From a virus (taxonomy: Duplodnaviria > Heunggongvirae > Uroviricota > Caudoviricetes), in the IMG/VR virus record IMGVR_UViG_2563366932_000014: DNA of 42,975 nucleotides; one strand, written 5' to 3'. The first letter of the stretch is position 1; every line of letters begins with the position of its first letter. Under the pieces are notes generated by a model. The model saw only the letters and a program-made list of their open reading frames with translations. It ran no database searches and was not told the origin of the DNA. Both the position numbers and the translations under genes were made by a program. Shown here in pieces: positions 1 through 42,975 of this stretch.

Positions 1-198
1 ATGGCACTGGACAGTTATGCATCTCCGAATATTATTCCGGAGCTAAGACAACCGAATGCCGCAGCAGGTAAGATCACGCTAGGGGGGCTGGACAGAATGG
101 CTGTTACGCCCAGTGTGAAGAAAAGAAGGCTAAGTATGGTAGAATTTCCATACGCACAGACCTTGTTATCCGACTATACAGCCTGGAAGGCACTATGA
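1..198 (+). CDS. hypothetical small protein (65 aa), first gene of a two-gene operon
   Basis: ORF starts at window position 1; its stop overlaps the next start (ATGA at 195-198), suggesting translational coupling; no recognisable family. Confidence 0.3.
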   Translation: MALDSYASPNIIPELRQPNAAAGKITLGGLDRMAVTPSVKKRRLSMVEFPYAQTLLSDYTAWKAL

Positions 199-983
199 CA
201 AATCTACAACTGGAAGAAAGATTTAGGGCGCTTGAGAAAGATTACGATGCGCTCATTTCCACAAAATATACTGCGCAGAACGTTCTCACTCACACTATGG
301 AAACCTATGTTGATTCTGGTAAATATAAAAACTGGATCGCCAGAGTGAAAAAGTTAATAGAGGACAGCTACGGAAAAGAGTCTGATTATTACAATGACTT
401 CAATACTGTAAACAGCAGGTGGTCTTCTAATTACAATACACTGATCAAAAGTTATAAACCGTTGTTTGATGCGGCGAGAGATGATCTTGCGCACTCTGCT
501 GTCAGTACTAATACTCCTCAAGAAGGTTCGCCGCTGAGCCTCGTACTTAATATTCTTAACAGGTTTCCGACCTTTGTTCGCCAGTTAAAGAGGCGGTACA
601 ACGGCCGTGCGCCGCTTGAAGTTAATGATGAGTATGACGTACAGGATTTGATTTATGCACTGCTGACGCTTCATTTTAATGATATTAGGGCGGAAGAGTA
701 TACCCCCAGCTTTGCGGGCGCGGCCTCAAGACAGGACTTTCTTTTGAAAAAAGAGAAAATTGTGATAGAGGTGAAGAAAACCCGTGAATCTCTGGGAGCG
801 GGTAAAGTTGGTGGAGAGTTGCTTATTGATATGGCGCGCTACCGCGCTCACCAAGACTGCGATACGTTGATCTTGTTTGTATATGACCCGGATTGCTACA
901 TAAATAATCCTTTGGGCGTGAAAACCGATCTGGAATCTAAAGACGCGGAAGGAAAAGTGAAGGTTGTTATTGCGCAGTTCTGA
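195..983 (+). CDS. hypothetical protein (262 aa) with C-terminal PD-(D/E)xK-like nuclease motif
   Basis: long ORF coupled to upstream ORF; C-terminal residues ..EYDVQDLIYALL.. and ..EKIVIEVKK.. fit a D...(D/E)xK pattern by eye; fold not verified. Confidence 0.5.
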   Translation: MTNLQLEERFRALEKDYDALISTKYTAQNVLTHTMETYVDSGKYKNWIARVKKLIEDSYGKESDYYNDFNTVNSRWSSNYNTLIKSYKPLFDAARDDLAHSAVSTNTPQEGSPLSLVLNILNRFPTFVRQLKRRYNGRAPLEVNDEYDVQDLIYALLTLHFNDIRAEEYTPSFAGAASRQDFLLKKEKIVIEVKKTRESLGAGKVGGELLIDMARYRAHQDCDTLILFVYDPDCYINNPLGVKTDLESKDAEGKVKVVIAQF

Positions 984-1016
984 CACGCTTAAGTGTCACC
1001 TTACAGGATTAGGTTT

Positions 1017-1065
1017 GCGGCCGTGCCAGCAGGACGAGCATGAAAAAGGCCGCTGGCACGGCCGG
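1017..1065. terminator. 13/14-bp inverted repeat hairpin between convergent genes (possible terminator)
   Basis: gcggccgtgccagc at 1017-1030 pairs with gctggcacggccgg at 1052-1065; only a weak T-run follows. Confidence 0.35.
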
Positions 1066-1070
1066 ATTTG

Positions 1071-1364
1071 TCATCTTTGCCAGGTCAAATCAAAATCTAC
1101 GTGAAAATCCGCAGGCTTAAGCTCGCAACTGCCACCACGCCCAATTAACGACGTTATGTTTACAACGTTTGAACCTGTTGAGATGGCAAGTTGAGTGTCA
1201 TCTGTAAACGTGATGATTAGCATTTCAGTCTGATGAACCTGTACTCCAGTTTTCTGAAAACCAATCTGGACAGATTTCACCGTTTTCCCAACCATTTCAC
1301 GGGCTTGATTGATAGAGTAATTAGCTTCAACTTGTAGGTCATTCCTGAACTTGGGTAGTGTCAT
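1071..1364 (-). CDS. hypothetical protein (97 aa)
   Basis: ORF with GAGGA-type RBS upstream of ATG; no recognisable family. Confidence 0.45.
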   Translation of the reverse strand: MTLPKFRNDLQVEANYSINQAREMVGKTVKSVQIGFQKTGVQVHQTEMLIITFTDDTQLAISTGSNVVNITSLIGRGGSCELKPADFHVDFDLTWQR

Positions 1365-1494
1365 TTTACATCCTCTTTAGTGAAGTTTTCGCTATTTAAA
1401 TCAGCAGCATTCCTTTTAAATCACTGGCATGTCAGCAGTGGATAGTCTGAGTGTAACGTCCAGTGAGGGGAATAAATATTGGTCAGACTTTGCA

Positions 1495-1520
1495 CAAAAG
1501 AGCCAACTATCGCGGGCTCT
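1495..1520 (-). terminator. putative rho-independent terminator downstream of the GIY-YIG gene
   Basis: stem agagcc/ggctct with 10-nt loop, followed on the minus strand by TTTT. Confidence 0.4.
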
Positions 1521-1577
1521 CTCTCATCATGTGCGAAAATTGACCACAATATGAAATCCAGTTCCATTCCGAAATCA

Positions 1578-2301
<724 letters not shown>

Positions 2302-2715
2302 TAGACTGGCCCCCTGAATCTCCAGACAACCAATATCACTTATTTAAGTGATAGTCTTAATACTAGTTTTTAGACTAGTCATTGGAGAGCAGATGATTGA
2401 TGTCTTAGGACCGGAGAAACGCAGACGGCGTACCACACAGGAAAAGATCGCAATTGTTCAGCAGAGCTTTGAACCAGGGATGACGGTCTCCCTCGTTGCC
2501 CGGCAACACGGTGTGGCAGCCAGCCAGTTATTTCTCTGGCGTAAGCAATACCAGGAAGGAAGTCTTACTGCTGTCGCCGCCGGAGAACAGGTTGTTCCTG
2601 CCTCTGAACTTGCTGCCGCCATGAAGCAGATTAAAGAACTCCAGCGCCTGCTCGGCAAGAAAACGATGGAAAATGAACTCCTCAAAGAAGCCGTTGAATA
2701 TGGACGGGCAAAAAA

Positions 2716-3735
<1,020 letters not shown>

Positions 3736-3833
3736 TCAATTGACAACTTATAATCCCTACTAGTTAGCATTATGATTTCCAGAGTGAGGAATATAAAAAT
3801 CTCTGTTTCTGGCACATAACAGCCCTTAAGATC

Positions 3834-3891
3834 GTAGCTCGCCATCATGGGGTGTCGGGGGGCGGAGGTTCAAATCCTCTCGTGCCGACCA
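3834..3891 (+). other. 3' fragment of a tRNA-Pro(GGG)-like gene (anticodon loop through CCA), probable attachment-site remnant
   Basis: ..tcatggggtgtcgggg..ggaggttcaaatcctctcgtgccgacca: T-arm GGAGG-TTCAAAT-CCTCT, acceptor 3' strand and CCA present; no 5' strand pairs with the acceptor, so not an intact tRNA. Confidence 0.6.
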
Positions 3892-3906
3892 AAAATCCCT
3901 TAAGAA

Positions 3907-3931
3907 CCAGCCTATTATGGCTGGTTTTTTT
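3907..3931 (+). terminator. rho-independent terminator just after the tRNA fragment
   Basis: stem ccagcc/ggctgg, loop tattat, then 7 T. Confidence 0.7.
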
Positions 3932-4099
3932 ATGATTGTTTTTTATGCGGAGAAATACCGGGGAATAATTGGGGTAAAACACCTTTAGGCTATTCACTTA
4001 GCCTACCACCATCAAAATCTTTCCGAATGTATCCATCTCTTTTTTCTTATGCAGCTAAAACGAAGTCTTGATACTGTTTATTTACACAGATAAGAATAA

Positions 4100-4119
4100 T
4101 ACTGTCTACAAACGCAGTA
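4100..4119. promoter_or_regulatory. LexA (SOS) box-like site upstream of the dinI-like remnant
   Basis: tactgtctacaaacgcagta matches the TACTGT-N8-ACAGTA pattern with one mismatch, about 14 bp before the ATG. Confidence 0.5.
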
Positions 4120-4132
4120 CAAAAGAAGTGTT

Positions 4133-4380
4133 ATGCGTATTGAGATCTCCATAGCCAAAGACAAAATGACCAAATGCCAAACGGCGCTGTGGACGCGTTA
4201 AAGGAAGAATTAACCCAACACATTGGCAAGCGTTATGACGATGTGGAGATGATCGTAAAAGCCACCAGCAACGATAGTTTTTCAGTTAGACATACTGCAG
4301 ATAAAGATTGAGCTAAAACTTTCGTTCAGGAAACTCTGAATGATACCTGAGAGTCTACTGAAGAGTTGTTTGTTCACTAG
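4133..4380 (+). pseudogene. dinI-like gene remnant (frameshift plus two in-frame TGA stops)
   Basis: frame A gives [11 protein letters not shown]..; a second frame continues ..[37 protein letters not shown].. then stop; AKTFVQETLNDT stop ESTEELFVH stop; the pieces together resemble DinI (recalled, not searched). Confidence 0.5.
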
Positions 4381-4675
4381 TTAGCACGTAGGAAATCATT
4401 CAATACTCGCACTATCGGAAGTTCACCAGCCAGTCGTAGCACGTCCTTGCAAACGACGTGCCTACGGTTTCAATCACCTCTCACCATCAATTCTATCAAT
4501 AATAATTAAACAGCGCCTAGACAAAATAAATAACAACAAGTCAACAACCTCGACAGGATGCCGATGGGATGATGAAGAGATAAGAAAGAATAACCAGTAA
4601 AGCCCTAAAACGTCAGCGTTCAGACGCGTTTTTTACTTAATCGGTAACAAATACGTTGTATCATAGCAAAATAAA

Positions 4676-6625
4676 ATGATTGTTCTAAATCAGATTAACT
4701 CCTCACTTTTGTACAATGTCGCTTACAGGTATACCATGAAATCCGAGACGCTAACTGTCCAACAACTTTTTCAAGACCGCCGACAATACTGTGTTCCATT
4801 CTATCAACGTGCCTATGTATGGACTCAGCAAGACCAGTGGTCAGCTCTACTGGAGGATATCCTAGAGAAAGTACAATCCCGGCTCTCGGGTACAAAACCA
4901 ACTCCCCATTTCCTTGGTGCGGTTGTACTGGAACCTCAATCAAAAAAAGGATTATTAGGTGTAGATTCCATACATATTATTGATGGTCAGCAACGATTGA
5001 CCACTCTTCAATATGTTCTGGCATCCATCCGATTAGCATTACGTGCTACGGATCTTTCCAGCTTAGAGGCTCTCATTTCGCCTTGCCTGAAAAACTCAAA
5101 CGAAGACACAATGCGAAATAAAGAAGTAGAACGCTTCAAACTGTGGCCAACTTTTCGGGATCAAACTCATTTTATTCAAAGTTTTAATGTTGAAAATATT
5201 GACGATCTCCGGGACGTATTCTCTGATAGTTTCACGCAGCATGGTACGTTGCGTAAGCATTTTAATCACCCGCCATCACTAGAAGCATTATGTTTTTTTA
5301 CTGAAGCCTTTATAAAATGGATTAAAATAGAAAACCACTCACCACAAGAAAATGCTGTAGCTCTAATTGAGGCTGTCTTAACAGATCTGAAACTGGTAAG
5401 CATATTTCTCGAAGCTGAAGATGATGCCCAAATAATTTTTGAAACATTAAATGGGCGAGGGGCGGAACTTCATGCTACGGATCTTATTCGCAACTATATC
5501 TTTATGTGCGCTGAGCATGAAAATATTAATGCTATTGAATTATATGAAAATGAGTGGAAGAGCTTTGAAGATAAATACTGGTCGGAAAAACAACGCCGTG
5601 GACGTATTAATAAACCACGCATGGAGTGGCTAGTACATGCGACATTGCAATCAGAAAGGCAACGTGAAATTGATCTGTCTCGCCTTTACAATGAGTATCG
5701 TGATTATGTAAGTAAGGACTTGTCTTCACAACGAGCAGATCTGCAAGTAAAGCGCCTCAAACAATATGCATCACAATATAAAGAATTGGTTGATGGTTTT
5801 GGCACAACCCCCATCTCACACTTTGGATATCGCATCGCAGACTATGATGTGACGACACTTTATCCGCTTGCTTTGTTCATTTCGATAGCTAACATCGCTG
5901 ATGATGAGAAAGCAGCCATGTATAATGATCTTGTCTCCTACGTAGTACGAAGAGCCGTATGTGGCCTGACGCCAAAGAATTACAACAATGTATTTATGAA
6001 TGTATTGCGGCACTTGGCTAAAACGGAAATTTCCAGTGTTGAGTTACGTAATATCCTCAATAACTTAAATGGCGAAGCCTCACGTTGGCCTGGTGACTCA
6101 GAATTTCTCAACGCTTGCATCAATGCTCCACTTTATCCTGGCAGGCTCGACGCACCGAAAATGCGCTCAATGTTAACGGAACTTGAAAGAGAACTTTGTC
6201 GCCAAGTAAAGACAGAAAAGCCTGATGTTCCAAATCTTTCTAATCTCGATATCGATCATCTTATGCCTCAAAGTTGGTATTCCTGTTGGCCTCTCGAAAA
6301 TGGTCGTATGGTGACAAATTCAGATGCTACGGTATTGAACCAAATTGTTCTGTCTGGAACCGATCTTACCCCTGAACAGCTACTGGTAAGGAAACGGCAA
6401 CAAGCGATATCTACTTTGGGAAATCTAACTTTGCTTAACCTTAGCGTAAACCGTTCTGTTCAGAATGCTGTATTTCTGAAAAAACGTGATGCTCTCATCG
6501 TCCACACCAATCTACGACTGAACATTCCACTTATAGTTAAGGATAAATGGGATGAGGATGAAATCCTGGAGCGGGGTAAAAAGTTGGGGGAAATTGCATT
6601 GAAAGTATGGCCAAAACACGATTAA
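4676..6625 (+). CDS. GmrSD-family (DUF262 N-terminal, DUF1524/HNH-like C-terminal) putative type IV modification-dependent restriction endonuclease
   Basis: 649-aa ORF; N-terminal ..FYQRAYVW.. and DGQQR motif; C-terminal ..DIDHLMPQS.. and ..NLSVNRSVQN.. His-Me finger-like; AT-rich by inspection; start may be the ATG at 4736. Confidence 0.65.
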   Translation: MIVLNQINSSLLYNVAYRYTMKSETLTVQQLFQDRRQYCVPFYQRAYVWTQQDQWSALLEDILEKVQSRLSGTKPTPHFLGAVVLEPQSKKGLLGVDSIHIIDGQQRLTTLQYVLASIRLALRATDLSSLEALISPCLKNSNEDTMRNKEVERFKLWPTFRDQTHFIQSFNVENIDDLRDVFSDSFTQHGTLRKHFNHPPSLEALCFFTEAFIKWIKIENHSPQENAVALIEAVLTDLKLVSIFLEAEDDAQIIFETLNGRGAELHATDLIRNYIFMCAEHENINAIELYENEWKSFEDKYWSEKQRRGRINKPRMEWLVHATLQSERQREIDLSRLYNEYRDYVSKDLSSQRADLQVKRLKQYASQYKELVDGFGTTPISHFGYRIADYDVTTLYPLALFISIANIADDEKAAMYNDLVSYVVRRAVCGLTPKNYNNVFMNVLRHLAKTEISSVELRNILNNLNGEASRWPGDSEFLNACINAPLYPGRLDAPKMRSMLTELERELCRQVKTEKPDVPNLSNLDIDHLMPQSWYSCWPLENGRMVTNSDATVLNQIVLSGTDLTPEQLLVRKRQQAISTLGNLTLLNLSVNRSVQNAVFLKKRDALIVHTNLRLNIPLIVKDKWDEDEILERGKKLGEIALKVWPKHD

Positions 6626-6649
6626 TGCAATTAATAAAATGATTATAGT

Positions 6650-6669
6650 GGCCTTACATTAGTAAGGCC
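6650..6669 (+). terminator. hairpin downstream of the GmrSD-like gene (possible terminator)
   Basis: ggccttac atta gtaaggcc; no clean T-run follows. Confidence 0.3.
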
Positions 6670-6720
6670 GCTACTCACTATTAAATACTTTAATTTGCAT
6701 CAAGAACAGCAGTGTCAGCC

Positions 6721-6849
6721 CTAGGTCTCGGACTTTGTACCGCTTATCTTGTCTTCAAAAATCAGCTCGCATCCTGCACAGTTCAGCGCATTACGTTGTA
6801 GATCTGTGTTCTGGTCATTTGTTGACACACGTACATAGCCAATAAGCAT
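6721..6849 (-). pseudogene. truncated 5' remnant of a Pin/Gin/Cin-type serine DNA invertase gene
   Basis: minus strand encodes MLIGYVRVSTNDQNTDLQRNALNCAGCELIFEDKISGT.., then the match is lost and a stop follows; the remaining ~150 codons of an invertase are absent. Confidence 0.7.
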
Positions 6850-6903
6850 GGTAGATCTCCCTGACAAAAGCAGGAATGATGCCATTTGCTCGTTATTTCT
6901 GCA

Positions 6904-6929
6904 TTTTCATAAACGTTGGTTTGGGAGAA
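6904..6929. repeat. 26-bp hix/gix-like inversion crossover site, promoter-distal
   Basis: ttttcataaacg tt ggtttgggagaa; right half-site is the exact reverse complement of the left half-site of the site at 8831-8856; central dinucleotide TT versus AA. Confidence 0.65.
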
Positions 6930-7370
6930 GCGGCAAAACGGAATGTGGGCAACGGGGAAAACCAAATCCCTGATATGTCTTTCTGGACGGTTACTGGTGG
7001 CAATGGAAATTTTGTGATTCGTCAACCTGACGGGCTAATCATTCAGATGGTTACTGTAAGTATAAGCGGCCCAGTGGCGATGAATGGAATGACTGATAAT
7101 GCTTATGCCATCACAGGTTCTAATAAGTCTTATATTGCCACAGCCACATTGCCCTTTGTATTTCCTAATAAGGTGCTGGGCGTTATCCCTCTGGTATCAA
7201 CAACAGCTTATGGTGGTGTATCCAGTAATATTACAGGTTCATACGCGACGGCGGTTTGTTCTTTTGCCGCTGTCAGGGGGAATAATACGATTGTGTTCAA
7301 AGTCGACAAACCACTGAATGCAGCCTTTCCTTCAGATACCAGCGTCTCAGCGTTAATCATTGGACGGTAA
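6918..7370 (+). CDS. promoterless alternative tail-fibre C-terminal cassette (Sv'-like)
   Basis: frame is open from the crossover site; in-silico inversion would fuse it in frame to the constant N-terminal part (..ALENLGLGE) of the tail-fibre gene. Confidence 0.6.
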   Translation, partial: GLGEAAKRNVGNGENQIPDMSFWTVTGGNGNFVIRQPDGLIIQMVTVSISGPVAMNGMTDNAYAITGSNKSYIATATLPFVFPNKVLGVIPLVSTTAYGGVSSNITGSYATAVCSFAAVRGNNTIVFKVDKPLNAAFPSDTSVSALIIGR

Positions 7371-40896: not shown

Positions 40897-42029
40897 CAAT
40901 CAGGAAACACCACCAGGGAGAAACGATCAATATAACTTTCACCTACAAAGGAGTTAGATGTCGTGAGCCGCTTTCCAATCTGGAAGTAACACCAAAGAAC
41001 ATTAAATACGCCGAGCGTACACTCGGCGAAATCCATAATAAGATCGAAAGGGGAACATTCATTTATGCAGAATATTTTCCCCGTTCTGCTCGTTTGAAAA
41101 TTTTTGGTAATGCTGCTGCAAGCAAAACGGTAAAGATGTACCTGGACGAATATCTTGAAATCTGCGAAACAAGAAAACTTTCACCCTCTACGATTGGTGG
41201 CTATAAAAAATGCCGTAGTGCGTTAGCCTCACTTCACATTTGCCCTGCAAGTGAATTAACACCAGCAACCCTGAAAGCGTGGATTCAAAGCCAGAAAACA
41301 ACCTTAAAAACCATTCGCAACCAGTTATCTTTCCTACGGTCAGCACTTGATGAAGCCGTGACCGATGGGGTACTTCAAATTAACCCCGTATCGTTAGTAA
41401 CAGCTTCGCGCTACCAAAGTGATAAGTCAGAAGCAGAAAGCAGCTATGTGGTTGATCCGCTATCACCAGCAGAAGTTGATGCATTACTAGCAGCAGCCGG
41501 AAACAAACAATGGGAAAATCTGTTCCGGTTCGCCATACATACAGGCCTGCGTAGTTCTGAATTATGTGCCCTACGATGGCATGATATCGACTTTGTTGGA
41601 AAAACAGCCCATGTTCAGAGCGCAAGTGTTGTCGGAGTTATCAAAGGAACAAAGACAAAAGCCGGTACCCGTAAAGTTGAACTGACTGAAGAAGCAATGT
41701 TGGCGTTGATAAACCAGAAGCCATTTACATTCATGAAGGATGCTACTGTCTTTGAAGATCCAAAGACCAATAAACCCTGGGCAAGTGCTGATGCAATTAG
41801 GAAAAAAGCATGGGTGCCAACATTGCGAAAAGCAGGTATTCGTTACAGAAACCCATATCAAACCAGGCATACATTCGCCACCAGCCATATCAGCCGGGGA
41901 GCAAACCTGTTTTGGCTTGCGGCTCAAATGGGCCATAAAGGGCCTGAAATGTTATTCAGGCACTATGGACAATACTTGAAAGAGTATGATGGGAGGGCAA
42001 GTATCAAGGATAAAAAGGCTTTATTTTAA
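40857..42029 (+). CDS. tyrosine integrase with N-terminal arm-binding domain
   Basis: N-terminal ..LPRGVTIRKHHQGETINITFTYKGVRCRE..; C-terminal R, H-x-x-R and Tyr (..HTFAT..FRHYGQYL..) motifs. Confidence 0.85.
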   Translation: MGQTKLLKLPRGVTIRKHHQGETINITFTYKGVRCREPLSNLEVTPKNIKYAERTLGEIHNKIERGTFIYAEYFPRSARLKIFGNAAASKTVKMYLDEYLEICETRKLSPSTIGGYKKCRSALASLHICPASELTPATLKAWIQSQKTTLKTIRNQLSFLRSALDEAVTDGVLQINPVSLVTASRYQSDKSEAESSYVVDPLSPAEVDALLAAAGNKQWENLFRFAIHTGLRSSELCALRWHDIDFVGKTAHVQSASVVGVIKGTKTKAGTRKVELTEEAMLALINQKPFTFMKDATVFEDPKTNKPWASADAIRKKAWVPTLRKAGIRYRNPYQTRHTFATSHISRGANLFWLAAQMGHKGPEMLFRHYGQYLKEYDGRASIKDKKALF

Positions 42030-42638
42030 GTCATTATGCCAATCGTCTACTGTTTGAAACCAAATTTTTAACCTTTGCATAAAGGTACGATCCTTTTTGG
42101 GAGGGTGGTACCTTTGAAAAGAAGTATGTAACGCTTCGATAACTCCCATACAAGCATCAATTACTTCTTGTGCTTTAACCGGGCGATCGGCATCTGAAAG
42201 CTTGTGAGCGACCTCACAATCCAGAGTTGCTTTCTCTAGTACAGATGAGAACACCTCGTCAGGTATATACAGTCCTCTGCTTTCCAAAATGCAAATCAGT
42301 TTGGAAACTTGTTGAGCTTTAGCCAAGATAGTTAACAAGTATGAAACAGAAGCCTTTGTTCTATCCTTTTGCAACCTTAACAATCGATGCTTTGATGCTC
42401 TAATTTTAGGTTGAGTTGTCTGACTGAGCCAATAGTTAGAAGAAATATCAGAAATTTCAATAACTAACTTTGAAATAGCATCAATAATTGATTTCGATTC
42501 AGAACGTGTCGCCAGTTTTACAGAATTATTGTACGCAACTCGCCATCCAATGAAAACTAAGCAGACGCTAACTACTGTGATACACCACGAATACTGTCCT
42601 ATTTGTGCTACTAATGACATTGGTTCCGTACTGATCAA
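42021..42638 (-). CDS. membrane-anchored hypothetical protein (205 aa)
   Basis: one N-terminal TM helix; AT-rich; convergent with and overlapping the int stop. Confidence 0.45.
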   Translation of the reverse strand: MISTEPMSLVAQIGQYSWCITVVSVCLVFIGWRVAYNNSVKLATRSESKSIIDAISKLVIEISDISSNYWLSQTTQPKIRASKHRLLRLQKDRTKASVSYLLTILAKAQQVSKLICILESRGLYIPDEVFSSVLEKATLDCEVAHKLSDADRPVKAQEVIDACMGVIEALHTSFQRYHPPKKDRTFMQRLKIWFQTVDDWHNDLK

Positions 42639-42648
42639 CTATCGCCTC

Positions 42649-42975
42649 TTATACTCTTTCTGGTTGTGCTAAATCAATAAATTTATCAATCTGTTCTTTG
42701 TAGAACGGAACATCACTTTTTATAATCAAACGTGCTTTAACGTTGGCTTTAGGTATCCCTTCCTTACGGATGAGACCTCCAAACGCCTCTTCTAAGAAAG
42801 AGGAACCAACACCCAGTGCTATACCGCGAAAATCAACCACAATCTCCTGTTCAGTACCCTTCAGCGCAGGCACCAAAAACTCTCTACGAAATCTTTCCGC
42901 ACTGTGTGGGCTATCCGTTGTGTAACGTCCGAAAGGTGTTCTGGAGAACTCCTTCGCTATGACGATATTTCTCAT
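42649..42975 (-). CDS. hypothetical small protein (108 aa), possibly STAS-like
   Basis: ATG is exactly at the window edge; 10-nt gap to the downstream gene; fold suggestion is tentative. Confidence 0.4.
   Translation of the reverse strand: MRNIVIAKEFSRTPFGRYTTDSPHSAERFRREFLVPALKGTEQEIVVDFRGIALGVGSSFLEEAFGGLIRKEGIPKANVKARLIIKSDVPFYKEQIDKFIDLAQPERV

Follow-up and report, generated by a model that had tools for sequence, protein, structure and literature searches.

The first 983 nucleotides of a 42,975-nucleotide stretch of caudovirus DNA (IMG/VR record IMGVR_UViG_2563366932_000014; the whole stretch is referred to here as the window) hold two reading frames, of 65 residues (1–198) and 262 residues (195–983), which overlap by ATGA. 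The locus raises the question of whether these frames form a translationally coupled pair, as the original prediction proposed, or whether a single gene lies downstream of its own leader. Both frames and their overlap are present as first described. We consider it about 80% probable that 195–983 encodes a stand-alone nuclease, DS-24, with its own promoter and ribosome-binding site and without a conserved partner, and that 1–198 is a chance frame.

The 262-residue protein is the phage-defence nuclease DS-24

The ATG-initiated ORF at 195–983 (plus strand) is an annotated CDS in UTI89, S88 and MS8345, in each case under the accession WP_000183405.1. Comparison with Table S8 of PMC13092281 revealed that the translation of 195–980 is identical to WP_000183405.1 letter for letter. 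This accession, with the working identifier RED2 or DS-24, originates from a natural isolate of E. coli and was reported by DeWeirdt et al. (DefensePredictor, Science 2026, PMC13092281; preprint 10.1101/2025.01.08.631726), and there is no protein-level difference between the published DS-24 and the protein in the window. The gene at 195–983 is DS-24, a single-gene phage-defence nuclease already in the literature with experimental validation.

In that study the cloned DS-24 fragment by itself protects MG1655 against phage, and DS-24 is listed as a one-CDS unit of 789 bp, defensive TRUE (Table S6), and marked as replicated. The −log10 EOP values for DS-24 (Table S7) are 7.5 for Bas1, 5.3 for Bas60, 5.0 for Bas3, 4.3 for Bas9, 4.0 for Bas6 and 3.9 for Bas11, with weak protection against T4, Candy and SECphi27. 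The protein is annotated there as a “remote defense homolog”, its best HHblits match being the PDDEXK effector LmuA of Lamassu, at a coverage of 0.38 (PMC13092281). DS-24 is not discussed in the main text of PMC13092281, which offers neither a mechanism nor mutants for it, and the strain and primer tables contain no catalytic mutant of DS-24. A search of main texts for WP_000183405.1 returned none; the accession turned up solely in supplementary tables belonging to PMC13092281, and no later literature naming DS-24 was found. The original reading of the gene as a nuclease with a defence function was correct, but previously known.

DS-24 carries a C-terminal PD-(D/E)xK domain

Residues 117–261 (543–977, plus strand) match the Pfam family PF18742, REase_DpnII-MboI, with E = 9.5e-49 and a score of 165.3 bits, where the curated gathering threshold is 27, over profile positions 3–149 of 150. 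The protein had been described as not placeable in a named family, a statement superseded by its assignment to PF18742 and its identity with DS-24. Further matches were to phrog_29450 in PHROGs (E = 7e-52), to the PADLOC Aga_Helical-REase model over residues 100–258 only (E = 1e-26; profile positions 212–372 of 378), and to EcbAgaN (PDB 23wq) over residues 140–231 only (E = 7.5e-6). Besides PF18742, no Pfam family was matched at E ≤ 1, the DpnII family included; Pfam detected no receiver domain, and there was no match to DUF4263 or Shedu in either Pfam or PADLOC.

The AF2 model of the protein (pLDDT 83.5) shows a canonical nuclease core, with the alpha-beta-beta-beta-alpha-beta topology of the PD-(D/E)xK superfamily, in line with the fold first suggested from sequence motifs. 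The pTM of the model is just 0.55, which leaves the mutual placement of the N- and C-terminal domains uncertain. Sequence conservation and the model together suggest a catalytic set of E146, D181 and E192-x-K194. E146 (codon GAG, 630–632, plus strand) would be the acidic active-site residue of helix 1 and lies in the model helix 146–158. D181 (GAC, 735–737, plus strand), the probable beta-2 catalytic aspartate and the “D” of the D-EVK motif, is matched in the profile alignment to 23wq by the aspartate of the RID tripeptide of EcbAgaN. The beta-3 E-x-K is formed by E192-V193-K194 (GAG GTG AAG, 768–776, plus strand), within the model strand 189–195. E146, D181, E192 and K194 are invariant in 79 of 79 sequences from bacteria and archaea. 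Further invariant residues are R134, D148, Q150, R165, E167, E168, R179, D212, Y216, D231, N238, P239 and D245. The high conservation of the C-terminal domain is partly an ascertainment effect, since the loci were retrieved by C-domain peptide patterns. The D...E-x-K pattern initially noted, composed of EYDVQDL (residues 146–152) and EKIVIEVKK (residues 187–195), is present, but it pairs the acidic residues of helix 1 with E-x-K and misses D181 of the RQD motif. By homology, the protein is probably a metal-dependent DNase, cleavage having been demonstrated only for the homologue EcbAgaN.

The N-terminal helical region of the original prediction corresponds to residues 1–105 (195–509, plus strand), a helical bundle with a beta-hairpin, which diverges fast and may have a regulatory or sensor role. 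Mean identity is 18.6% in this domain versus 59.9% in the nuclease domain. A profile search for fusions of the N-terminal domain to other effectors returned, among matches apparently restricted to short proteins, only short fragments or ORFs of at most 201 aa consisting of this domain, without any other Pfam domain.

Comparison of DS-24 with related nucleases

EcbAgaN, which carries a D-EVK motif, degrades DNA non-specifically in the presence of Mn2+ and brings about abortive infection (Song et al., Nat Commun 2023, PMC10620215). bAgaN and DS-24 have in common the C-terminal PD-(D/E)xK module with its D-EVK motif, and a two-domain organization in which a linker joins a helical N-terminal domain to the nuclease. 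However, bAgaN is about 390 aa long with a different and larger N-terminal region, whereas DS-24 has 262 aa and matches in the C-terminal domain only; and bAgaN is encoded beside, and activated by, a pAgo protein, whereas DS-24 acts by itself, with no pAgo gene next to it. Neither an adjacent long-B Argonaute gene nor a full-length AgaN match was found that would make DS-24 a member of BPAN. An REase (PF18742) effector domain is also present in some Detocs variants (Rousset et al., bioRxiv 10.1101/2023.01.24.525353, Fig. S8). Detocs, in contrast, is a phosphorelay of three genes whose effector is joined to a receiver domain, and DS-24 has none of these parts: no Detocs sensor kinase, buffer protein or receiver-domain effector is adjacent to it.

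The use of this nuclease module as an effector in both BPAN and some Detocs systems raises the alternative that DS-24 requires a separately encoded sensor, as bAgaN does with long-B Argonaute or REase-type Detocs with its kinase, and pAgo proteins do account for 2 of 146 immediate neighbours, in distant loci. Against this, the cloned gene protects MG1655 by itself, the PADLOC Aga models match only the C-terminal domain (residues 100–258), the pAgo-linked relatives are longer proteins of 390–420 aa, and no sensor gene recurs beside the form of about 255 aa; we regard a separate sensor as very improbable.

Lamassu LmuA resembles DS-24 as a PDDEXK defence effector with a variable N-terminal region, but the LmuB/SMC partner is absent at the DS-24 locus, and protein size and N-terminal fold differ. 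Shedu (SduA), which we take to combine a conserved PD-(D/E)xK nuclease with variable N-terminal regions in a manner similar to DS-24, likewise differs in size and N-terminal fold.

DpnII/MboI and DS-24 both belong to the PD-(D/E)xK superfamily, and the Pfam family of DS-24 is named after these enzymes. E. coli is Dam+, and DS-24 could in principle be an orphan type II enzyme of the DpnII/MboI type that cuts unmethylated GATC, with the host protected by Dam. Several observations make this highly improbable. The protein lacks a match to the DpnII family, as described above, and bAgaN, the nearest relative to have been characterised, degrades DNA non-specifically. No cognate DNA methyltransferase was found within 7 kb of the gene, and none recurs in the neighbourhood of 78 loci drawn from archaea and a wide range of phyla, hosts in which an unprotected GATC cutter would be lethal; methyltransferase matches were limited to 2 of 146 neighbours and to the generic Methyltransf_25/31 domains. 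Furthermore, N6-adenine methyltransferase genes are abundant in Drexlerviridae, and their products would be expected to shield these phages from an MboI-like enzyme.

The 65-residue frame overlies the probable promoter and the leader of DS-24

The 65-residue frame (1–198, plus strand) starts with ATG. In UTI89, an in-frame TAG is located 24 nt upstream of window base 1, and the ORF is therefore complete. It gave no match in Pfam, NCBIfam, PHROGs or PADLOC, and is unannotated in UTI89, S88 and MS8345, with no PGAP call. ORFs of 65 aa or more number 154 in the window, compared with 90 ± 9 in mononucleotide shuffles. Across 11 related loci, indels of 1, 5 and 16 nt close the frame or put it out of register, or the frame is absent, with at most 34 codons remaining open; indels that are not a multiple of three close or shift it in loci L003, L007, L009, L090–L093 and L094. 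The first ~85 nt have no counterpart in any related locus, and are followed by a conserved region of putative promoter and leader at ~85–194.

Alignment of 12 loci revealed two putative sites as the sole invariant upstream elements. At the first, T137, T140, A144 and T145 do not vary and A141 and A143 hardly do, which gives T-A-x-A-A-T, the pattern expected of a −10 hexamer for sigma-70. This conservation points to a probable extended −10 element, TGgTAGAAT, at 137–145 (plus strand), a site that a consensus promoter scan did not report. The second is a Shine–Dalgarno sequence, GGAAGG, at 184–189 (plus strand), 5 nt before the ATG at 195, in which GGA (185–187) is invariant. The ATG embedded at the probable −10 site is not conserved, being replaced by GTG, ATT or TTT in other loci. 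On this alignment, the DS-24 gene probably has its own promoter at 137–145. The functional RED2 insert begins 6 nt ahead of window base 1 and ends at 1058; the vector that carries it is described as lacking a promoter upstream of the insert (PMC13092281). The insert used in the defence assay includes all of the 65-residue ORF, and the published phenotype leaves room for a role of this frame.

These data bear on the proposal that the two frames form a translationally coupled module, for example an antitoxin or regulator followed by a nuclease toxin. The ATGA overlap and the presence of the entire small ORF within the defence-conferring fragment are consistent with such a module, as is a frame of 19–24 codons, ending at or beside the main ATG, that persists in 7 of 12 enterobacterial loci and could be a leader peptide in that subgroup. 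However, the lack of a counterpart for the first ~85 nt, the non-triplet indels, and the absence of both family matches and annotation argue against it, and chance alone would be expected to yield ORFs of this length. The conserved upstream positions fit a −10 hexamer and a Shine–Dalgarno sequence rather than codons, and distant family members have unrelated upstream neighbours. The coupled two-gene operon of the original prediction is thus unsupported, because the small ORF is broken or absent in all homologous loci examined and overlies the conserved −10 box and Shine–Dalgarno sequence, and we give it very little credence. Judged from the comparative sequence data, the 65-residue ORF is most likely a chance reading frame over the promoter and leader of DS-24.

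An Rfam scan of 1–4700 at E ≤ 1 gave no match, and thus no known RNA element in the leader. The conserved leader was also inspected by eye for a LexA or CRP operator, an idea rejected as there was no match to either consensus. Downstream of DS-24, between it and a convergent 97-residue ORF, lies a perfect inverted repeat of 13 bp at 1018–1064 (arms 1018–1030 and 1052–1064; no strand assigned), a probable terminator whose inner hairpin was found on both strands in a terminator scan.

DS-24 is cargo of mobile, defence-rich DNA

The neighbours of DS-24 are ssrA, the 97-residue ORF, PD-T4-3, an insertion element and a DUF262 gene, and the locus constitutes ssrA-adjacent prophage cargo beside PD-T4-3 and a GmrSD-like enzyme. 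The adjacent GIY-YIG gene is a homologue of PD-T4-3 (PADLOC, E = 2.8e-106). Comparison with UTI89 showed that 1330 bp have been inserted into it (2302–3631), an insertion that carries two overlapping ORFs (2348–3621). The insertion is presumably IS2, as the original prediction named it, to judge from the IS2 ends and the InsC/InsD sequences; the inactivation of the GIY-YIG neighbour is itself borne out. The tRNA-derived remnant could be specified as a 60-nt 3′ fragment of tRNA-Pro at 3836–3895, with a 93% match to an annotated tRNA-Pro; a scan found no intact tRNA. The non-IS part of 1–7000 has a GC content of 0.39–0.47, in agreement with the AT-richer DNA described initially, and the island setting, mobile and rich in defence genes, was likewise recognized correctly. 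A repeat of the ssrA 3′ end was sought within the window as an att site, without a match. The convergent 97-residue ORF (1071–1364) was rejected as a conserved partner of DS-24, as it had no family match in Pfam, NCBIfam, PHROGs or PADLOC; it shows no similarity to a 103-residue convergent ORF beside a Citrobacter homologue.

The DS-24 family comprises 3479 clusters at 50% identity from bacteria and archaea. Its members are uniform in length, at ~255 aa (about 250–295 aa), and the nuclease domain is always C-terminal. Many DS-24 homologues carry a propagated, incorrect label, “malate dehydrogenase”. Homologues were found on IncX1 and IncF plasmids, beside Abi genes, and also within integrase-bearing islands. 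The IncX1 copy has 64% identity to DS-24, and a cyanobacterial copy also belongs to the family. Together with the prophage cargo described here, the gene neighbourhoods are consistent with the mobile setting originally proposed. A tblastn search of a phage genome collection gave no match to DS-24.

Conservation of neighbours was assessed by all-against-all BLAST of the flanking ORFs of 78 diverse loci, and by searching the 146 immediate neighbours against Pfam and PADLOC. No conserved neighbour gene was found in the 78 loci. The largest recurrent neighbour family occurred in 5 loci; the recurrent families were recombinases, integrases and transposases, and the other neighbours belonged to unrelated families. 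DS-24 needs no conserved partner gene. Of the “defence or toxin module” initially suggested, the defence part stands, the protein being identical to the validated DS-24, while the idea of a toxin paired with a partner protein is unsupported because no neighbour is conserved across the 78 diverse loci.

A further reading is that DS-24 serves the maintenance or competition of mobile elements, by plasmid addiction, by excluding rival elements, or as a factor in recombination or excision, and that its action on phages is incidental. This is very unlikely, given the strong, phage-family-specific protection conferred by the gene cloned alone and the lack of an antidote gene. The recombinase neighbours come from differing families, as expected for cargo of mobile DNA and not for a functional partnership, and the similarity to XisH extends no further than the generic fold.

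Proposed mechanism and implications

Gating by the N-terminal domain, its trigger, the nuclease activity and the mode of action are all inferred. In the mechanism we propose, the DS-24 nuclease would be kept inactive in uninfected cells; upon infection, the N-terminal domain would sense a phage-specific cue, which would free DNA cleavage and block phage replication. The action could then consist either of indiscriminate DNA degradation, leading to abortive infection as for bAgaN, or of direct attack on phage DNA. The chances for abortive or indiscriminate cleavage appear evenly balanced, and direct attack on phage DNA is a possible but less probable mode.

In practical terms, the value of the analysis is a corrected annotation: the gene, currently labelled “hypothetical protein”, deserves the label DS-24 / PD-(D/E)xK defence nuclease, and the upstream 65-residue ORF should lose its gene status. 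The locus also provides an example of decay in defence cargo, with PD-T4-3 knocked out by the presumed IS2 and both DS-24 and the GmrSD-like enzyme intact. A constant C-terminal DNase, a variable N-terminal bundle, the lack of a partner, a defined leader with a putative promoter, and a set of invariant residues offer handles for mechanistic work.

Few of the single-gene systems validated recently are as widespread as DS-24. We tentatively suggest that it represents a very large pan-prokaryotic class of self-contained sensor-effectors, in which a hypervariable N-terminal domain may read phage molecules and gate a near-invariant DNase. If so, diversification of the N-terminal domain would track phage escape, and these domains would together make up a library, provided by nature, of modules that sense phages; the conserved leader and short upstream frame of enterobacteria might add a second, translational layer of control.

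Identity of the 262-aa protein and published defence activity

The 262-codon ORF at 195–983 (+) encodes WP_000183405.1, and DeWeirdt et al. ("DefensePredictor", Science 2026, PMC13092281) list an identical 262-aa protein in their supplementary tables as RED2, or DS-24. DS-24 is given there as a one-CDS transcription unit of 789 bp, classed as a "remote defense homolog" and carrying the flags "defensive TRUE" and "replicated TRUE". For testing in MG1655, each unit was inserted together with 200 bp of its upstream DNA into the pSC101 plasmid pCV1, which is described as promoterless ahead of the cloning site (PMC13092281). The −log10(EOP) values for DS-24 were 7.5 with phage Bas1, 5.3 with Bas60, 5.0 with Bas3, 4.3 with Bas9, 4.0 with Bas6 and 3.9 with Bas11 (Table S7); for Candy, SECphi27, T4, T5 and lambda the effect did not exceed about 1 log, and plaques were smaller (PMC13092281). 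According to its primers, the RED2 insert begins 6 nt ahead of window base 1 and ends at window position 1058. The main text of that paper contains no discussion of DS-24 and no DS-24 mutants are listed; a search for follow-up literature on DS-24 found no paper. The defence function of the gene is established, and the system is already known.

Nuclease domain and predicted structure

Residues 117–261 match Pfam PF18742 (REase_DpnII-MboI; E = 9.5e-49, 165 bits against a cutoff of 27), and DS-24 also matches phrog_29450 and the solved structure of EcbAgaN (PDB 23wq), the nuclease effector of a long-B Argonaute system. PADLOC "Aga_Helical-REase" models match the C-terminal half only. In an AlphaFold2 model built on 32 homologues (pLDDT 83.5), a helical bundle that includes a beta-hairpin forms the N-terminal part (aa 3–101); after a disordered linker comes the canonical alpha-beta-beta-beta-alpha-beta core of a nuclease, the fold that the original prediction called for. 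The predicted catalytic set is E146 (helix 1), D181 (beta-2) and E192-V-K194 (beta-3), corresponding to the D-EVK motif of EcbAgaN. The earlier reading of a D...E-x-K pattern was right about E-x-K, which it paired with helix-1 residues, missing D181; its assignment of the protein to nucleases and defence is right, but the system concerned is the published DS-24.

The upstream ORF, probable promoter and leader

The upstream ORF (65 codons, ATG start, 1–198, +) overlaps the DS-24 ORF by ATGA, as described originally, and is complete, since in UTI89 an in-frame TAG lies 24 nt before window base 1. The two had been interpreted as a coupled operon. The small ORF has no match in Pfam, NCBIfam, PHROGs or PADLOC and was not called by PGAP in three genomes. 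ORFs of this length are common by chance: shuffles yield 90 ± 9 with 65 or more codons, and the window itself has 154.

The weightiest evidence against the small ORF as a gene is comparative, and comes from loci with 55–89% protein identity on IncX1 and other plasmids and in Pantoea, Enterobacter, Serratia, Salmonella, Pectobacterium and Citrobacter. Upstream DNA similarity in all of these reaches only about 110 nt from the gene, so the first ~85 nt of the small ORF have no counterpart. Within the shared part, the frame is broken or shifted by 1-, 5- or 16-nt indels or by stop codons, leaving at most 34 open codons in any homologous locus. The invariant positions are instead T137, T140, A144, T145 and GGA at 185–187, with A141 and A143 nearly so, a pattern predicted to represent an extended −10 box (TGgTAGAAT) and a Shine-Dalgarno site. 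Where this box contains an ATG, other loci have GTG, ATT or TTT. The published result agrees with a promoter located inside the small ORF, since the construct starting at window position −5 was functional in a promoterless vector. As that construct contains the whole small ORF, the experiment by itself is also compatible with a role for this ORF. Taken together, we consider the two-gene model very improbable, and the operon most likely an artefact in which a chance ORF lies over the DS-24 promoter and leader.

Of 12 enterobacterial loci, 7 (window 136–198; L004, L005, L006, L007, L086 and L088) retain a shorter frame of 19–24 codons, which opens with the ATG inside the conserved ATGGTAGAAT box and closes on or next to the main ATG; in the others it is lost through 1-, 5- and 16-nt indels. 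Its retention could be due to chance among related loci, or the frame could encode a leader peptide in a subset of them.

Genomic context

The window is E. coli chromosome, and positions 1–1400 are 100% identical in UTI89, S88, APEC O1 and about 110 other complete genomes. The tmRNA gene ssrA lies 386 bp upstream of base 1. In S88 (NC_011742.1; locus L002, 1–5454), a P2-like prophage encoding CI, an integrase and a Dam-type methylase separates ssrA from the DS-24 gene; the cargo region with DS-24 thus persists while other elements at the ssrA hotspot come and go.

Downstream and convergent is a 97-aa ORF (1071–1364, −; hypothetical protein WP_000174562.1), itself downstream of the GIY-YIG gene, with no family match and no similarity to the 103-aa convergent ORF beside a Citrobacter DS-24 homologue. 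A perfect 13-bp inverted repeat between the two genes (1018–1030/1052–1064) is probably their shared terminator; the published RED2 insert stops inside it, at 1058.

The GIY-YIG neighbour noted originally is a PD-T4-3 homologue (1575–2219, −; PADLOC E = 2.8e-106, profile positions 44–254 of 256). Relative to UTI89 the gene (1575–2301) is split 47 nt within its 5' end by a 1330-bp insertion at 2302–3631, which carries two overlapping ORFs (2348–3621) and is probably IS2, judging from its ends and from InsC/InsD sequences. The gene is intact in UTI89, S88 and ATCC 11775; MS8345 instead carries an element of the IS3 family, just upstream of the gene.

The tRNA-derived remnant is likewise present, as a 60-nt 3' fragment (3836–3895) 93% identical to an annotated tRNA-Pro whose gene is present in every E. 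coli genome; a hairpin and T-run follow, and ARAGORN detected no intact tRNA. The layout and surroundings of the locus are thus as first described. The fragment is probably the att remnant of an element that formerly used tRNA-Pro, now within the ssrA-linked region, in which case the cargo region is a mosaic. Beyond it, an intact 649-aa DUF262/GmrSD-like type IV enzyme (4676–6625; PADLOC mREase_IV, 1415 bits) joins DS-24 and PD-T4-3 in a small defence cluster on the tail-fibre side of a prophage of about 40 kb, whose tail genes follow and whose integrase lies at the far end beside glaH. Between the integrase and the core gene glaH are three genes, encoding a STAS-like domain protein flanked by two hypothetical proteins (UTI89 NC_007946.1, 2941113–2942983; locus L097, 16114–17984; window about 42021–42975), which lie in the same ssrA–glaH variable interval and are possibly another module of cargo or defence genes.

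Family, variation and mobility

A word-indexed search returned 2483 DS-24 homologues, and an exhaustive profile search 3479 clusters at 50% identity with E ≤ 1e-3 (1614 with E ≤ 1e-30). Many homologues in NCBI and UniRef (P0004–P0110) are named "malate dehydrogenase", evidently a mistaken annotation of a PD-(D/E)xK nuclease that has spread. A scan of species-representative genomes placed relatives in Proteobacteria, Bacteroidota, Cyanobacteria, Firmicutes, Planctomycetota, CPR bacteria and several archaeal lineages. Lengths are mostly 250–295 aa, and the nuclease domain is C-terminal in all. Among 79 sequences, mean pairwise identity is 59.9% in the C-domain, with 17 invariant residues, and 18.6% in the N-domain, a contrast that is partly ascertainment because the loci were retrieved by C-domain motifs; 58 of 78 N-regions are BLAST-linked to the E. 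coli type. N-domain-only ORFs of about 97 aa occur in several metagenomic or MAG contigs (P0123, P0128, P0133, P0134), one of them on 7 contigs, the longest 82 kb; these may be remnants of truncated genes or else N-domains that stand alone, perhaps acting as inhibitors or decoys.

No neighbour is conserved across 78 loci, the biggest neighbour family occurring in 5, and 146 immediate neighbours match 111 different Pfam families. Serine recombinases, tyrosine integrases and transposases recur, and two pAgo neighbours lie beside longer, AgaN-type relatives. Rather than a housekeeping context, DS-24-type genes of Enterobacterales are always on mobile DNA, namely ssrA-linked islands, prophage cargo, an ICE-like element, and IncX1 (beside a resolvase gene and an Abi gene) and IncF plasmids; in distant phyla neighbours are mixed. 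A phage genome collection gave no DS-24 match. About half of 367 plasmid records contain truncated copies only (aa 1–70, 1–134, 1–176 or 1–218), mostly unannotated and on large IncF-size E. coli plasmids (H47–H70), so plasmid DS-24-like genes seem often inactivated. Overall, the original observation is partly confirmed and its interpretation partly supported.

Proposed mechanism

Any mechanism builds on a validated defence phenotype of the gene on its own fragment, and on a PD-(D/E)xK domain whose catalytic residues are intact and invariant. Homologues of the DS-24 nuclease include bAgaN, which carries out abortive infection as a Mn2+-dependent, non-specific DNase (PMC10620215), and the effector REases found in some Detocs systems. 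No partner gene was found for DS-24, which would be a self-contained nuclease. It would have to be held inactive in uninfected cells, because no immunity gene accompanies it and more than 100 E. coli genomes carry it intact and with identical sequence. The variable N-terminal bundle may supply regulation or sensing, and infection would release DNA cleavage. We favour such trigger-dependent, largely non-specific cleavage (abortive infection), with a probability of about 0.5, over direct attack on phage DNA, which is possible and rather doubtful. An orphan GATC-specific enzyme, with host Dam protecting the chromosome, is hardly plausible: a methyltransferase recurs beside DS-24-type genes in no phylum, DS-24 has no DpnII-family match, and Drexlerviridae abundantly encode adenine methyltransferases. 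The interest that remains lies in the mechanism of DS-24 and in the architecture of a very large family, in which a constant nuclease is joined to a variable N-domain.
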